In this document: positions 2,829-60,585 of the stretch, in pieces
Layout: each line of letters opens with the position of its first letter
How positions within the stretch are numbered: position 1 is the stretch's first letter
Source of the DNA: Eledone cirrhosa
Taxonomy: Eukaryota
Length of the DNA: 64,000 nucleotides
Assembly: GCA_964016885.1 (NCBI GenBank)
Contig: OZ024746.1
Coordinates: forward strand, 27,652,001-27,716,000
Reading direction: 5' to 3'
The notes under the pieces: generated by a model
Seen by the model: only the letters and a program-made list of their open reading frames with translations
Told to the model about the DNA's origin: nothing
Database searches by the model: none
Made by a program: the position numbers and the translations under genes

Positions 2829-2833
<5 letters not shown>

Positions 2834-3016
2834 AACAAGTAAGACCCCGACGGCTGAGCTGAAGCCGTTTCGACGGCTAATTCTGGAATTAGCCGTCGAA
2901 ACGGCTTGAGCTCAGCCGTCGAGGTCTTACTTGTTCCTATTACCCACTCTACTACCCTAAGTATTGAGTACTTTGGTGAGTTATGGTCCACCTGGTTCCT
3001 TACCACATTTTCTTCG

Positions 3017-3018
<2 letters not shown>
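2829..3018 (+). mobile_element. Fold-back element family B (hammerhead 3' half) in (TA)n
   Basis: Palindrome 2829-2940, axis ~2884. GAAAC-GGCT-tgagctc-AGCC-GTC at 2898-2920. 3' end shared with 3940-4158, 13495-13572 and 45541-45741. Confidence 0.85.
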
Positions 3019-3250: not shown

Positions 3251-3620
3251 ATATGTATACATCCTCTCTCACATGTTGCACTTAATCATTTCTTTTAGGT
3301 CTTCATGGTATTTTAACCGAGGAGGTAATCATCCATACACACACACAGACTTCAAACATAATTTATAAAAGGGACATGACCACCTACTTCCCTTCAATGC
3401 CACACAGTCACACACACTTCTACACTGAACTACATCCTTTTCAACCTGAATACTTATGTAGTTCCCCACCCCAACAAAAGCAGCCCTACCTATACTGTTA
3501 TGGTTCATTAAACAAATAAGAAAATTAAAAAGAAATATTTGGAGGTGCTCATATACATCATGCATACAATATAACAGAAATTACATCACCTGAAACACAC
3601 ACGCACACACATACATACAT

Positions 3621-3652
<32 letters not shown>

Positions 3653-3662
3653 TTTTTTAAAA

Positions 3663-3863
3663 ATATTTTATAGAAGGAGCTTCTACAGGACTAGTACTGT
3701 TTCATTCAGATGAAATCTTCAGGAAGCTTCCTGAAGATTTCATCTGAATGAAACAGTACTAGTCCTGTAGAAGCTCCTTCTATAAAATATAAAAAATTTT
3801 TACTCTGCCATGTATTGATTACCTTACTTACTGTGGTTATCCCCGACTCAACCCGGGACCTAC

Positions 3864-3864
<1 letters not shown>
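3663..3864 (+). mobile_element. Fold-back element family A carrying a hammerhead on each arm
   Basis: Perfect 64-bp arms 3663-3726/3727-3790 with axis in AGCT. Long arm runs into (TA)n. Second copy at 48764-48900. Confidence 0.88.
3725..3775 (+). ncRNA. Type I hammerhead ribozyme (predicted cleavage after GUA, 3769)
   Basis: AGCTTC-CTGAAGA-tttcatctgaat-GAAA-CAG-tactagtc-CTG-TA-GAAGCT: helix I AGCTTC/GAAGCT, helix II TTCA/TGAA, helix III ACAG/CTGT, intact core. Confidence 0.85.
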
Positions 3865-3939
<75 letters not shown>

Positions 3940-3942
<3 letters not shown>

Positions 3943-4155
3943 AGTAAGTAAGACCCCGACGGCTGAGCTCAAGCCGTTTCGACGGCTAGTTCTGTACTGG
4001 CTAATTCTGTACTAATTCAGTACAGAATTAGCCGTCGAAACGGCTTGAGCTCAGCCGTCGGGGTCTTACCTACTCCTATTACCCACTCTACTACCCTAAG
4101 TATTGAGTACTTTGGTGCGTTATGGTCCACCTGGTTCCTTACCACTTTTCCCTCG

Positions 4156-4158
<3 letters not shown>
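3940..4158 (+). mobile_element. Fold-back element family B, second copy
   Basis: Palindrome 3939-4079 with a 15-bp duplication near the loop; GAAACGGCTTGAGCTCAGCCGTC|GGGGTC; flanked by (TA)n. Confidence 0.85.
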
Positions 4159-4215
<57 letters not shown>

Positions 4216-11896: not shown

Positions 11897-12426
11897 GATA
11901 AATCTACCAAGAGTTTACGGTAGTGTCCAATCCGTATGAAGAACTCAATGTAATCCGGATATCATGGAAAGAACAGATGCAATGAAAAATCACTTTCGGT
12001 GAAAGATAAACGGAATACAGAGTCAAGATAAAATATAAAAAAAATAATGAATAAAACAATGAAACAGTTCCTTATATTAAACAAAAAAAGTTCATTATTT
12101 AACGATCGTTTCTGGGATATATATGTGTTAGAATTGGCATGTATATTTAACAGATCTATGTACAAAATTATACAAAATTATACAAACTATCAAAATTAAA
12201 TATACATACCAACTCATATATATGCCGTCTTCACTGAAGACGGCATATATATGAGTTGGTATGTATATTTAATTTTGATAGTTTGTATAATTTTGTATAA
12301 TTTTGTACATAGATCTGTTAAATATACATGCCAATTCTAACACATATATATCCCAGAAACGATCGTTAAATAATGAACTTTTTTTGTTTAATATAAGGAA
12401 CTGTTTCATTGTTTTATTCATTATTT

Positions 12427-12440
<14 letters not shown>
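11893..12440 (-). mobile_element. Fold-back element family C: ~206-bp arms, axis at 12234 on the hammerhead CTGAAGA core
   Basis: Mirror ORFs 11962-12165(-) and 12303-12560(+) share their first 46 aa. CTGAAGA (12234-12240), long helix II, then GAAAC-GATC-GTT (12356-12367). TA tracts at both ends. Confidence 0.88.
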
Positions 12441-13494: not shown

Positions 13495-13770
13495 ACGAAG
13501 GAAGTGTGGTAAGCAACAAGGTGGACCATAACGCGCCAGAGTACTCAATACTTAGGGTAGTAGAGTGGGTAATACCGAGAACAATTGTTTCAGCTTAGCG
13601 GATCTTCAGCTCGTAATAACCATGTCCATTACGAGCTGAAGATCCGCTAAGGTGAAACAATTGTTCTCGGTATGGTGAACTAACTGTTGTGTTACCACTT
13701 CTACCTAACTCATCCCATGGACTGAGTGCTCTAGTACTACGGATATTACCTTCCAGTGTTCTACCTCTCT
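13495..13770. mobile_element. Chimeric fold-back: family B 3' end (minus) fused to a family D palindrome with a complete hammerhead
   Basis: 13495-13572 is the reverse complement of the family B tail; palindrome 13572-13673; family D 3' end recurs at ~19815-19867. Confidence 0.8.
13632..13669 (+). ncRNA. Minimal type I hammerhead ribozyme (predicted cleavage after GUU, 13665)
   Basis: CGAG-CTGAAGA-tccgctaaggt-GAAAC-AATT-GTT-CTCG: helix I CGAG/CTCG, palindromic helix III ACAATTGT. Confidence 0.82.
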
Positions 13771-15111: not shown

Positions 15112-15326
15112 ATGGTGGCTTCCAACTCGTTTTCGAGTACGACCACTACTTTATATCCATATAGGAGAACTCCTACCGATGCGCTGAATGAGTGTGACTT
15201 TTTAGTCCAGCCAGCGACTTGAAAACTCTGGTACAAACACTACACTTGTGACAATTATTGACACATAGTGCTGGGCCCATGGTACCATGTGACGACAAGT
15301 GCAGAGAGATCTCCAGATATAAAGCA
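15112..15326 (-). mobile_element. RTE-derived family R1 3' fragment
   Basis: Reverse complement of ~39347-39560; encodes [25 protein letters not shown]. Confidence 0.85.
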
Positions 15327-15824
15327 TGTATATATACAAACTTATATATATTATGCATACATGTATATATATTTATATACACGTGTGTGTGTATGCATAT
15401 TATAGTCTAGGAGATAGGGTGTAATAAAAAACACTGTTGACTTTTGACAGTTGTTAAAGACTCCTGGACACTTGGCGATGAACCATGATGCTATGCTCAG
15501 TTAAAAAGTTTCTCCCTGCAAAAGGAATGGAATTTATTAAAGACACCAAAAGCCCAGGCGTTTCTTGTAATATCCCTTGTCTTTTGTGAAAAACAATATT
15601 AAAAAAAATCAAGGACTTTATTACTGACTCTTGGTTTAAGTTGTTTTGTTAACATCAATTTTGTAAATCCCTCACTTGGCCATTTGCAATTACGTCATTA
15701 CGCAGGCGTGAACCGCTATGTACTTCCCTCCCTCTCCCACTCCCACTTCTAGTCTACGACGTAACACGGGCGGTGGTTACATGCCCTTGGTTATTGTTTT
15801 CTATGTTAAACTAAGTGGCAGACA

Positions 15825-18606: not shown

Positions 18607-19121
<515 letters not shown>

Positions 19122-19129
<8 letters not shown>

Positions 19130-19733
19130 AATTTAGTATATCTACTAACATATGCGTACAGATGTATGCTAATGCCAGCAAATACACAGGTTATGTTATA
19201 GTACCTAGGTGGTTCAATGCATTGAACCACCTAGGTACTATGACATAACCTGTGTATTTGCTGGCATTAGCATACATCTGTACGCATATGTTAGTAGAGA
19301 AACTAAATTTTCTATATTTATCTTCAAATCACTTGTTTGTCGAGCAAACCTGCCAAAACCACTACTAATTTTTTGGTGTGTTAGTAGGCTTCTGTCATCT
19401 TACCATCCCACTCCTACCGACTAGCCTCAGTGTCACGTGATCGATTCTTTAGAATCGGCCATTTCACCAGTGACAGCGAGATTTTCAGTGCATGGAATCC
19501 AGTCCCCGCTAGCTGTTCCATTTACTGAATTATTATTATATTTATATGAGTCCCCAGTGTCCGCGCATTGCCTGGAGACTTAGCTGAGAATAGACCTCCC
19601 TGATGACGCAATGAATTCTCAACAGTTTATTACGTAACTGTCTTTATCCCATTGCAGAAACTAATTAGTTGGAGTGAAATTTTAGTAAGTAAGTTAATTT
19701 CTTAAAATTTTTTTAAAATTTTCTTATTTTACG

Positions 19734-38986: not shown

Positions 38987-39592
38987 TCCCAGTACAACCT
39001 GTCTCATGGTCGGGTCGTTGGCGACTAAACTGGCAACCCCACCAAGGTTTCTTGATGAGGAGGGTGACTTTGGACATCCTGCAGGACTAAAAACAAAACC
39101 TGTCAAAGGGCAAAGGAGCTCTTAAGAGTCAATGGCCTTCCAAAATCACCGGGAGAGATGACACCTTAGCCTCTGTCAAGGCATAATTCTAGGAGAAGGA
39201 AAACTCTGATATAACACCTGCAACCCTGATAGTATCCAATGATGTTGACATGTTCTTCTTGTTGGTAAATATCATCTTGGTTAAGAGAGTGGGACTGGCT
39301 TTGTGCAGTGCCTTTGCTCACTATAAAAGCTTCACGGCACAGGCATTGCTTTATATCTGGAGATCTCTCTGCACTTGTCGGCACATGGTATCATGGGCCC
39401 AGCACTGTGTCAATAATTGTCACAAGTGTAGTGTTTGTACCAGAGTTTTCAAGTCGCTGGCTGGACTAAAAAGTCACACTCGTTCAGCGCATCAGTAGGG
39501 GTTCTCCTACATGGACATAAAGTAGTGGCCGTACTCGAAAACGAGTTGGCAGCCACCATGTATGTATGTATGTATGTATATATGTATGTATG

Positions 39593-42501: not shown

Positions 42502-42706
42502 TTGTTTAGATATTGTCAAAGCTCTTTCGTCACACATTCTGTGACCTACTTAGTGACTAGGCTTTTATTTTGTGTCTCTCCTTTGTTCTGTCCTACACCA
42601 TCTAGCTTTTGGTGTAGGACAGAACAAAGGAGAGACAAAATAAAAAGCCAGTCACTAAGTAGGTCACAGAATGTGTGGCGAAAAAGCTTTGACAATATAT
42701 AAACAA
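42502..42706. repeat. ~100-bp-arm palindrome with 9-nt loop
   Basis: 42502-42600 versus 42610-42706 with a few substitutions and indels. Confidence 0.9.
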
Positions 42707-45384: not shown

Positions 45385-45505
45385 CTCACCTGAAGAAGGG
45401 CTTATGCCTGAAACGTCGTCCCCCACCTACCCCCCACTCTCCTGAGCGTGAATTTAATAAACATTTATTGTACTGCCTCTCTGTTCTGTCCCTGTTCAAT
45501 TTTTC

Positions 45506-45508
<3 letters not shown>
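45385..45508 (+). mobile_element. Short TA-flanked element with hammerhead core
   Basis: CTCAC-CTGAAGA-agggcttatgcct-GAAACGTC-GT; downstream part identical to ~57907-57985 and similar to ~19888-19978. Confidence 0.65.
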
Positions 45509-45540
<32 letters not shown>

Positions 45541-45542
<2 letters not shown>

Positions 45543-45741
45543 CAAAGGAATTGTGGTAAGGAACCAGATGGACCATAACGCACCAGAGTACTCAATACTT
45601 AGGGTAGTAGAGTGGGAAATAGGAAAAAGTATGACCCCGACAGCAGAGCTCATGCCGTTTCGTCGGCTATTTCTGGAGAGTTAGTCCAGAAATAGCCGTC
45701 GAAACTGCTTGATCTCTGCCGTCGGGGGTCATACTTTTTCA
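45541..45741 (-). mobile_element. Fold-back element family B, third copy
   Basis: Palindrome ~45624-45740 with axis in TTCTGGA-gagttag-TCCAGAA. Confidence 0.85.
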
Positions 45742-45746
45742 TATAT

Positions 45747-45941
45747 ATCTCTCTGCACTTGTCGTCACAGGGTACCATGGCCCCAGCACTATGTGTCAAT
45801 ATTTGTCACAAGTGTGGTGTTTGTACCAGAGTTTTCAAGTCGCTGGCTGGACTAAAAGGTCACACTCGTTCAGTGCATCTGTAGGGGTTCTCCTATATGG
45901 ATATAAAGTAGTGGCCGTACTCGAAAACGAGTTGGCAGCCA

Positions 45942-45945
<4 letters not shown>
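45747..45945 (+). mobile_element. RTE-derived family R1 3' fragment
   Basis: Matches 39363-39558. Confidence 0.85.

Positions 45946-48704: not shown

Positions 48705-48708
<4 letters not shown>
48422..48708. mobile_element. Back-to-back Penelope-like fragments (family H minus, family I plus) in (TA)n
   Basis: Minus-strand GAAACGCGCGTC at 48477-48488; 48631-48708 is the inverted copy of 49603-49681, which has minus-strand GAAACCGGTC. Confidence 0.65.
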
Positions 48709-48763
<55 letters not shown>

Positions 48764-48764
<1 letters not shown>

Positions 48765-48900
48765 GTAGGTCCCGGGTTGAGTCGGGGATAACCACAGTAA
48801 GTAAGGTACTCAATACATGGCAGAGTAACATTTTTTTATTTTATAGAAGGAGCTTCTACAGGACTAGTACTGTTTCATTCAGATGAAATCTTCAGGAAGC
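48764..48900 (-). mobile_element. Family A copy, unfolded, starting exactly at hammerhead helix I
   Basis: Reverse complement of 3726-3864; begins GCTTCCTGAAGA; complete hammerhead on minus 48852-48900. Confidence 0.88.
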
Positions 48901-56231: not shown

Positions 56232-56817
56232 ATACATACATATAAACATACATGCACATATATATAAGAATATATATATACAGACACACACGAACACACA
56301 CACATATATATATATATATCGTTTTTTGTTGTTGTTCAAATAACTATATTGTTCAGCGTGTTGTTAACTAGTGTAAGACATCTGGTGTGATTAAAGGAGA
56401 CATTCACTGCTGTTTGCGGAAGATAATTTTACGGTAGTTAGTGTAAGATGAAATATAAGTTACTGAGGGTGTGTGGGTTAGCCGGTTAGAAGAAGAATAG
56501 ACAATATTTCAGCTACGTCTGTAGATATACTTATATTAACTGTATTCTACTTACTAAATCTCTCGTACTCTGTCGAACTTTAGTTTATATCTGACATTGT
56601 TTCTGTTAAAACCTGATATTTTTTAAACCTAAAGTTGTTATTCACAAAACCTATCGATCACCTAGTTGCTGTAGGTTTTCGTCCTTGTCAGGCATCTGCA
56701 TCGGTATCTGTCACGTTTTTCTGTACCTGATTGGTGAATGACCTTGCACCGCGAAGCCTTAACAGCCAGGGGATCATGGAAACGACCCACTCCACCACGG
56801 CAAGGTGTCAGATGTAA

Positions 56818-57027
56818 GGATAATAAAGATAAAATAACAGAAATGACATTTTAACGGAATTGTGCAGTGTTAAGCGTTTTTCTTTTATTTACCAAATGTA
56901 GTCAGCTAATGTTCCTCGGTTCGATTTTATTTCCCAATATATTTTAGACTATATATTGCTTTCTCACTCTTCTTCACTCTTTCGCTCAATTTATTTATAA
57001 ACACGCCCACATATGTGCATACATACA

Positions 57028-57075
<48 letters not shown>

Positions 57076-57104
57076 TTGTGTGTGTATGCATATATATATG
57101 TAAA

Positions 57105-57146
<42 letters not shown>

Positions 57147-57175
57147 TTGTGTGTGTATGCATATATATATGTAAA

Positions 57176-57217
<42 letters not shown>

Positions 57218-57246
57218 TTTACATATATATATGCATACACACACAA

Positions 57247-57329
<83 letters not shown>

Positions 57330-57479
57330 ATAATAATAAAATTGAAGACTAAAATCCAAAGAGGGCTCGATAAGGAAAATATATATCAAATATATAAGAA
57401 CCGTAGAGCAAATATATATTTATATATATATAGTCTTTGTGTGTGTATGCATATATATATACTTTAATCTGTTATTTTA

Positions 57480-57536
<57 letters not shown>

Positions 57537-57787
57537 TGTATGTATGCACATATGTGGGCGTGTTTATAAATAAATTGAGCGAAAGAGTGAAGAAGAGCGA
57601 GAAAGCAATATTTAGTCTAAAATATATTGGGAAATAAAATCGAACCGAGGAACATTAGCTGACTACATTTGGTAAATAAAAGAAAAACGTTTAACACTGC
57701 AGAATTCCGTTAAAATGTCATTTCTGTTATTTTATCTATATTATCCTGATATATCGTTATTAAATGTCTTCTCACCATGTATTTCTG

Positions 57788-57837
<50 letters not shown>

Positions 57838-58032
57838 CAGAAATACATGGTGAGAAGACATTTAATAACAATATATATATATTAGAGAGAGAGAGAGACG
57901 TGTATATCCCCACTCTCCTGAGCGTGAATTTAATAAACATTTATTGTACTGCCTCTCTGTTCTGTCCCTGTTCAATTTTTCATTATATATATATATATAT
58001 ATATATATTTATTAAAATAACAGATTAAAGTT
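56818..58032. repeat. Nested inverted-duplication complex around (TA)n tracts
   Basis: Outer arms ~56818-57031/57532-57747; inner inversion 57141-57251; further pairs 57461-57485/58005-58030 and 57757-57790/57834-57868. Confidence 0.88.
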
Positions 58033-59807: not shown

Positions 59808-59812
<5 letters not shown>

Positions 59813-60579
59813 AAACACAAAACGTGTTTGCATTGTAACAGGCCAAAACGTGTTTGCATTGTAACAGGCCAAAGTAGCCGTCCCGCACAGCCGTTTGTGC
59901 GGGATTAATGAACAGCTCTACAGATAAGCAGCAATATACTATATTATAATTTGAGATTAAACTCTCAGTCGTTTACAATAAATCAGCTCCAAGAAAGGGG
60001 CCTTTCCGAGCAGTTAAATATATATGATAAACGTGTTTGCATTGTAACATACAAAGTTAGCTATCAATGCACAAACGACTGTTATTTCTAGCACCGGGAA
60101 TGCGGGACGGCTACTTTGGCCTGGCTAGACACACGTGTAGTCAGACCTGCAACATTTTTTGATGGTGAGATATACTAATTTTACTGGGTTCCTGTTGATA
60201 AGCACAGAAGATTTGGTTATTTCACTTTTTATTTCAATTCCATTTCGATTCTCTTTATTTTTCAATTCACGTACCATCGTTGCGAAACATATTTAGGTTT
60301 CGAAATTCAAATTCATCTACGGAGCGGGTTTGGATTTTGAAATTTAGATTTGTCCAGGAATCACGGCCTTTGCCAATATAAGCTTGTCTTTATTGACTTA
60401 TATCGAGACAGACAAATTGTATTCACTTTAATTAGTTTATTTCATTGATAGCTAACTTTGTCTGTTACAATGCAAACACGTTTTGTGTTTATTATATATA
60501 TTTAACTGCTCGGAAAGGCCCCTTTCTTGGAGCTGATTTATTGTAAACGACTGAGAGTTTAATCTCAAATTATAATATA

Positions 60580-60585
<6 letters not shown>
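59808..60585. mobile_element. TA-flanked element with ~135-bp inverted repeats and reshuffled terminal pieces; Penelope-like candidate (family J)
   Basis: 59933-60069 inverted versus 60443-60585; 59863-59886 inverted versus 60101-60123; related fragment at ~40280-40380. Confidence 0.7.

Follow-up and report, generated by a model that had tools for sequence, protein, structure and literature searches.

A high-copy short retroelement fragment with a hammerhead motif, facing a shorter, head-to-head copy of the same fragment within a TA repeat of Eledone cirrhosa

One palindrome in the window (the whole stretch of 64,000 nucleotides that was analysed) carries a hammerhead ribozyme motif on both strands, and a second copy without a mirror arm begins at the same base. 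What kind of element is this, and where does its recurring 5' end come from? The element is a high-copy short retroelement fragment with a hammerhead motif; a shorter copy of the fragment adjoins it head-to-head, and the pair sits in a TA repeat. Our analysis indicates that the element probably derives from the 3' pseudo-LTR (pLTR) of a Penelope-like element (PLE), as a short non-coding unit of SINE size that a PLE reverse transcriptase (RT)/GIY-YIG endonuclease mobilises in trans.

Positions 3663–3790 form a perfect palindrome of 128 bp, as given in the preliminary description, with 64-bp arms, no spacer and no mismatch; its chance expectation is about 2e-31 per window. The centre (3726|3727) lies within AGCT (3725–3728), which is the spacer-free head-to-head junction and overlaps the 5' strand of helix I. 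The long arm (3726–3864, plus strand) is the full unit of 139 nt and consists of the hammerhead, an A/T linker and a 74-nt tail (3791–3864), the last present in this arm only. It is followed by a (TA)n tract (3865–3940), the putative priming target. The mirror arm (3663–3726, minus strand) is the exact reverse complement of 3727–3790. It contains the whole hammerhead motif and no tail, corresponds to the first 64 nt of the unit only, and ends 10 nt from a second (TA)n tract (3637–3652, start approximate), which comes after a (CA)n tract and is the target on the mirror-arm side. The T/A linker in between (3653–3662, minus strand) is host DNA, or the mirror arm slipped onward through an A run.

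The unit, family A, opens with the 5' strand of helix I (3726–3730; 5 bp in copy 2, 6 bp in copy 1 with 3725). Next, all on the plus strand, are the catalytic box CUGANGA (3731–3737, CUGAAGA in copy 1), helix II (3738–3749) with a basal U.U, 3 bp and a 4-nt loop (3742–3745), a segment at 3750–3769 with the GAAA box, helix III (A-U plus 3 bp), an 8-nt loop with the palindrome ACUAGU and the GUA triplet, and the 3' strand of helix I (3770–3774). The boxes CUGANGA, GAAA and NUH stand in order and helices I and III close, which gives a type I hammerhead sequence in all three arms. A purpose-written type I descriptor, applied strictly (helix I of at least 5 Watson-Crick pairs, helix III of at least 3), matches at +3731, -3722 and -48895, that is, 3 times in the window versus 0 in each of 60 local shuffles, and the earlier identification as a hammerhead stands. 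The predicted cut site falls after A3769, within the GUA triplet, where it had been placed before; the position is right by the descriptor. Rfam yields 0 matches at gathering score in the whole window, and no hammerhead family is among its 73 weak matches at 3600–4200. Canonical G10.1-C11.1 of helix II is not present; U.U plus 3 bp is found instead. The word "intact" is true of the sequence, in which the motif is complete, with the caveat that the motif is Rfam-negative, weak in helix II and rarely predicted to fold. Weak Rfam matches of microRNA type at the element were rejected; they reflect the hairpin alone.

Copy 2 (48764–48900, minus strand, 137 nt) is 96.4% identical to the 139-nt unit and has no mirror arm. 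Its first base is the equivalent of 3726 and its last base before (TA)n is also that of copy 1, as had been claimed; all three family A arms in the window begin at one base. The two copies differ in 5 of 139 columns, all 3' of the hammerhead and none among the first 61. (TA)n is found at the insertion site in both window copies (48708–48763 at the 3' end of copy 2, whose 5' flank is a TA/CA microsatellite). Target-site duplications are unreadable at both, the flanks being microsatellites. A MITE or foldback DNA transposon was rejected, copy 2 being without an inverted arm and the tail of copy 1 lying outside the palindrome.

Arms that are 100% identical and spacer-free are also what a fold-back chimera produced during library preparation or assembly would give. 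Such an artefact is very improbable here: both ends of the element lie at (TA)n, other fold-backs of the window have mismatched arms, independent runs show the fold again in a different sequence, and the mirror-free copy 2 ends at the same base.

The whole palindrome is predicted to fold as a single hairpin of -107.2 kcal/mol. All folding values are equilibrium predictions, made without Mg2+ or protein. The preliminary description held that transcription in either direction yields a full hammerhead sequence. The sequence is indeed on both strands; an RNA started in the flank, however, meets the mirror first and folds into the long hairpin, and the pair probability of helices I–III is 0.00 in every growing transcript folded from 3600. 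The mirrored copy is thus predicted to be catalytically silent, and the mirrored motifs are probably not bidirectional ribozymes. For the isolated core the predicted probability of the hammerhead fold is 0.002. A competing hairpin (3766–3784, plus strand) is predicted to bury the cut site, with a mean pair probability of 0.92 in the full unit. It seems to be kept in variant copies, in which the changes (variants 3775–3777) fall at the loop and the closing pair, and is possibly a conserved off-switch. The palindrome of loop III has a predicted self-dimer of -15.2 kcal/mol, and helix III can pair between two molecules. One PLE hammerhead that needs its protein for cutting is reported in PMC11167929; for the basal U.U of helix II, PMC7229834 offers a precedent, a weakly cleaving retrozyme of the axolotl.

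The mirror is not peculiar to family A. Self-comparison of the window measured nine further fold-back elements; at least nine exist. Because of these, the mirror is regarded as a general insertion signature, the shared product of one insertion route. In eight of the nine an arm end or a 77–80-nt tail adjoins (TA)n; the layout of tail-arm and arm beside (TA)n is common to other families of the window, and tails of 77–80 nt occur in four elements. Family B comprises three fold-backs with a 77–80-nt tail (2832–3017, 3941–4156 and 45542–45744, the last with its fold-back at 45619) and has apparently the 3' half of a hammerhead only. Its copies fold in the helix II region at three different centres, and since the central spacers differ, the three folds were formed separately. 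A second fold-back is nested in the copy at 3941. Family C (13495–13673, fold-back 13572–13673) has a complete minimal hammerhead on both arms, with CUGAAGA, a U.U-closed helix II, a palindromic helix III, GUU and a 10-nt spacer upstream of helix I. It folds a few nucleotides upstream of helix I and shares its tail with family B, while its ribozyme is different; the sequences suggest module swapping. Family D (12028–12440) is a palindrome whose 206-bp arms match perfectly around a 1-nt spacer, and it folds exactly at CUGAAGA and has its right end at (TA)n; past CUGAAGA no GAAA box is found at hammerhead distance. Family J (45385–45507, core at 45390) has a minimal hammerhead core just after (TA)n, with helix I largely missing; its 3' part is found again at 57908–57983, and both end at (TA)n. 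Four fold-backs (504–688, 18796–19076, 19127–19312 and 42502–42706) are without a recognisable hammerhead core, three of them with one arm ending at (TA)n. The 5' ends of the window families are all found upstream of the cut site and none falls on it; outside family A they vary: helix II in three elements, C3 (12234) in one, and a few nucleotides upstream of the core in others (13622, 45390). At 56812–57752 and 59811–60580, (TA)n tracts are surrounded by larger inverted duplications, which are nested.

An 11-nt motif lies in the family A tail at 3812–3822. In the window it occurs at 2961, 3812, 4100, 8703, 12528, 12610, 13541, 45588 and 48806. Six of these occurrences are in tails of families A, B and C, 42–46 nt ahead of (TA)n, and the three others also lie close to (TA)n. 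Its nine matches compare with 2.2 expected for a motif chosen after the fact, which makes it a candidate recognition signal of marginal significance. The likeness of the family A tail to the tails of B and C is likewise marginal, 23–56 of 2000 shuffles reaching the score for copy 2 and 167–337 of 2000 for copy 1.

A search of sequencing runs found part of the stretch in 8 of the 19 runs listed, none of them with half of the nine words. Four runs were compared with the 168-nt stretch 3697–3864 at 82% likeness: X1, X3 and X8 as contigs, X17 as raw RAD reads. Matches were found in 4,958 contigs of X1, 3,610 contigs of X3, 2 pieces of X8 and 3,969 reads of X17; summed contig depth was not used as copy number. 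Since contigs or reads match in the thousands in X1, X3 and X17, the element represents an interspersed family that is abundant in two organisms or more. A metagenome contig collection and a viral contig collection gave 0 matches each. A single match in a genome_contigs collection (L001, 313–338) was rejected as chance, lying in a bacterial coding region without partners for helices I and III; the gene just downstream resembles, by eye, a MazF/PemK-type toxin-antitoxin gene.

Relatives vary in a manner that respects the hammerhead. Position N7 (3735) is A in copy 1 and T in 864 of 944 X17 reads, all four places of loop II (3742–3745) are variable, and T at 3758 in most relatives leaves a 4-nt palindrome in loop III. 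Among the best 40 of 81 variant rows, 6 of the 7 variable places within 3735–3774 fall at N7, loop II or loop III, which belong to the 13 places of these 40 that the hammerhead leaves free (P=0.003). On this sequence comparison the hammerhead shape appears to be kept.

In X1, X3 and X17 the 3' loose ends at 3856–3863 continue into (TA)n; an X3 row of 10 contigs does so at 3791, the end of the short arm. On the 5' side, among the best 20 of 308 loose-end rows from all runs, ends are found at 3725 (19 contigs), 3728 (84) and 3736 (68) in X1, at 3728 (76 contigs) and 3796 (7) in X3, at 3749 (1) in X8, and at 3736 (508 reads) and 3746 (520) in X17. The best-supported junctions with unlike flanks fall at 3725–3736 in this set, the rows at 3728 having a flank agreement of 0.44 (X1) and 0.41 (X3). 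The X1 row at 3736 represents clipping at the variable N7, with a consensus that continues to helix I. The reference held the mirror upstream of 3727, so that any non-mirrored copy also clips near 3727. In X17, 90 molecule ends at 3728 were set aside, since in a RAD library a restriction site or clipping may be their cause. Of five opposite-strand joints, four pair 3732–3758 with 3803–3825, so other 5' ends occur.

A defined unit of about 140 nt, or a strong RT stop at helix I, had been offered as the cause of this end. The recurring unit is supported. The stop does not hold as worded: judged from the geometry, an RT moving 3' to 5' would meet helix I at 3774–3775, and the helix would already be open at 3726. 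Nor does cleavage place the end, since a cleavage-made end would be at 3770, 44 nt from the actual 5' end at 3726. Most likely the common 5' end is inherited from short source copies that start at helix I and is not made anew by a stop there.

The 5' ends might instead belong to ordinary truncated copies of a long autonomous PLE, whose RT falls off at an RNA structure upstream of or within the ribozyme, with no dedicated short unit. The accounts of PMC4209133, PMC8557442 and bioRxiv 10.64898/2026.07.22.740005 present strong 5' truncation and solo hammerheads as usual in PLEs; the 19 X1 contigs at 3725 have a common upstream sequence (agreement 0.68), which suggests longer copies; and the other families of the window end at differing points of the motif, three helix II folds having formed separately. 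The candidate native upstream sequence of X1 is absent beside any hammerhead in the window. Against truncation stand the probable opening of helix I before RT reaches 3726, the one start base of all three window arms, and the largest 5' rows shown, which have long unlike flanks (agreement 0.41–0.44) and lie at the same place in two organisms. We regard truncation as possible, with the balance of evidence leaning away from it.

Centres of the fold were also compared among runs. X1 and X3 each include one contig whose centre is 10 nt shorter. Read by eye, the consensus of 520 X17 loose ends before 3746 mirrors the letters downstream in 10 of 11 positions, around a 1-nt spacer at 3727; its letters differ, so this is a recurrence of the same fold in another sequence. 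Only 2 X17 reads match the mirror arm itself. Six of 18 contig pieces shown span from 3700 or before to 3774 or beyond, and one X8 piece begins at 3712; the contigs that cross the centre have 27–30 aligned letters left of it, under the 31-letter rule.

These pieces bear on the idea that the palindrome itself replicates. A read-through RNA of mirror, arm and tail would be a long hairpin with a single-stranded tail, which RT copies whole (copy 1 type) or which yields the copy 2 type through an RT stop, or a cut in the RNA, at the tip of the hairpin. This accounts at once for the exact common end and the recurring centre; the predicted hairpin is very stable (the -107.2 kcal/mol above), six of the pieces cross the centre, and the X8 piece from 3712 resembles a hairpin-collapsed contig. 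We nevertheless consider it unlikely: identity of the arms over 64 bp fits fresh copying equally, the centres vary among X1, X3 and X17, and the pieces shown were chosen by length and lie below the 31-letter rule.

The preferred reading, a PLE-derived short unit moved in trans, draws on what the sequence itself displays: the anatomy of the unit, (TA)n at its 3' side, a one-sided tail, the head-to-head mirror, high abundance and structure-respecting variation. Mechanistically, the PLE enzyme would nick the (TA)n tract and start cDNA synthesis from the tail end (3864). The template would be uncleaved RNA, whose 3766–3784 hairpin would keep the ribozyme off. The cDNA would end at the unit boundary (3726), just upstream of the catalytic core. 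For the copy 2 type, this end would be joined to the target. In the copy 1 type a second strand would be made head-to-head through the 4-nt self-complementary AGCT: the cDNA end would either fold back or be joined to another cDNA, primed by the opposite strand of the target at the A/T linker (about 3790), so that two start sites, 3864 and about 3790, would be used. In DNA folding of the cDNA 3' end, the fold-back at the centre is the lowest-energy state at 0 of 5 end points. Several observations speak against the preferred reading, namely no linked PLE protein, the 74-nt tail, the X1 row at 3725, the opposite-strand joints and the clip-prone reference. Because no PLE protein was found in the comparison of 145 of the 187 non-repetitive window frames with Pfam (no GIY-YIG either), PLE membership is inferred from sequence features. 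The sole RT match among the 145 is a weak RVT_1 at 988–1605 (E=0.0036). The region 988–2204 holds a broken LINE-like RT C-terminus with this match and then C2H2 zinc-finger frames, and related zinc-finger 3' pieces occur at 15114–15406, 39193–39557 and 45696–45943.

In an extended form, two uncleaved RNAs would pair through the loop III palindrome with helix I intermolecular, and the hammerhead would mark a boundary and mediate pairing instead of cutting. A dimeric PLE enzyme would prime one cDNA per target strand, one at the tail start and one at the linker start; both would stop at the paired ribozyme and then be joined head-to-head. Lunse et al. are said to have described dimeric PLE hammerheads. 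We give this full dimer scheme only slight credence. If true, it would define a class of SINE-like PLE parasites of about 140 nt bounded by a ribozyme, and it would explain why the 5' ends of several families lie within or just upstream of the 5' half of the hammerhead and why many junction spacers, at 0–3 nt, leave no room for a hairpin loop.

The role of the hammerhead in PLEs and the origin of head-to-head inversions are treated as open questions in print (PMC8557442, PMC11167929). A many-copy family of 139 nt with two start sites and a recurring 5' end is a large natural data set for end histograms and arm phylogenies, as well as a minimal template for in vitro tests. Annotators should be aware that mirrored motifs score as microRNA-like hairpins and that Rfam hammerhead models miss them.

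Published PLEs supply close parallels. PMC3846280 describes inverted pLTRs that are shorter than the direct one and overlap it, a palindrome at the head-to-head junction and an optional one-sided tail, and proposes self-priming. For Neptune and Naiad, PMC8557442 reports an adjacent inverted 5'-truncated copy, a 30–40-bp tail and a bias to (TA)n. PLE hammerheads with palindromic loop III, opposite-strand motif pairs and low activity are given in PMC4209133, as is the end of the Drosophila Penelope intron at the 5' end of helix I. Cutting and extension of both target strands, two RT start sites and uncleaved RNA as substrate are documented in PMC11167929; hammerheads are unmentioned in the accessible text of PMC13282606. 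In the openly available papers that were covered, no published report of 5' ends clustering at helix I was found. Four short motifs of the unit are not in the supplementary metadata table of PMC8557442, whose consensus sequences may include the parent.

Among short interspersed elements, the schistosome hammerhead SINEs Sm-alpha and Sj-alpha, as cited in PMC6765202, are alike in being short interspersed units with a hammerhead; they have a promoter ahead of the ribozyme, whereas the family A unit begins at helix I. No tRNA gene and no A or B box are found at the unit. Non-LTR retrozymes (PMC7229834; bioRxiv 10.64898/2026.07.22.740005) are also small and non-coding, carry a type I hammerhead and are proposed PLE derivatives, but they form head-to-tail tandem repeats of 150–450 bp with circular RNA, whereas family A is 139 nt, dispersed, and single or head-to-head. 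That the copies are solo monomers of such a retrozyme is an improbable reading. Besides the type I motif it has on its side the U.U precedent in the axolotl retrozyme (PMC7229834), the dispersed monomers common in bioRxiv 10.64898/2026.07.22.740005, and two joints of tandem type, the only two listed; it is opposed by the lack of a tandem array in the window, a unit shorter than the range in PMC7229834, unit ends away from the cut site, and a head-to-head layout with tail, which is a PLE insertion feature.

Compared with the short-helix-III, minimal hammerheads of PLE type (PMC4209133; PMC6765202), the family A motif agrees in being type I, with a 5-bp helix I and a dimerisable palindromic loop III, and in occurring as dispersed single motifs and opposite-strand pairs. 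It differs in a 3-bp helix II with U.U for the conserved G10.1-C11.1, in having no extra base after A9 and in a longer helix III (3 bp with an 8-nt loop). Naiads, in the published description, are without a canonical hammerhead, whereas the family A motif has all three helices. With PLE pLTR insertions, as described for Neptune/Naiad-type (TA)n targeting and for the inverted pLTRs of Adineta Pen2/Pen3, the element shares a hammerhead near the 3' end, a head-to-head, overlapping and shorter inverted copy, a palindrome at the junction, a tail at one end and a (TA)n target. Unlike them, it has no ORF and a whole insert of about 200 bp, a tail of 74 nt as against 30–40 nt in the printed accounts available, and 5' ends that appear clustered at helix I. 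The layout, a head-to-head mirror in a TA repeat, is already known from PLEs, and only the tight clustering of the start points is unusual.
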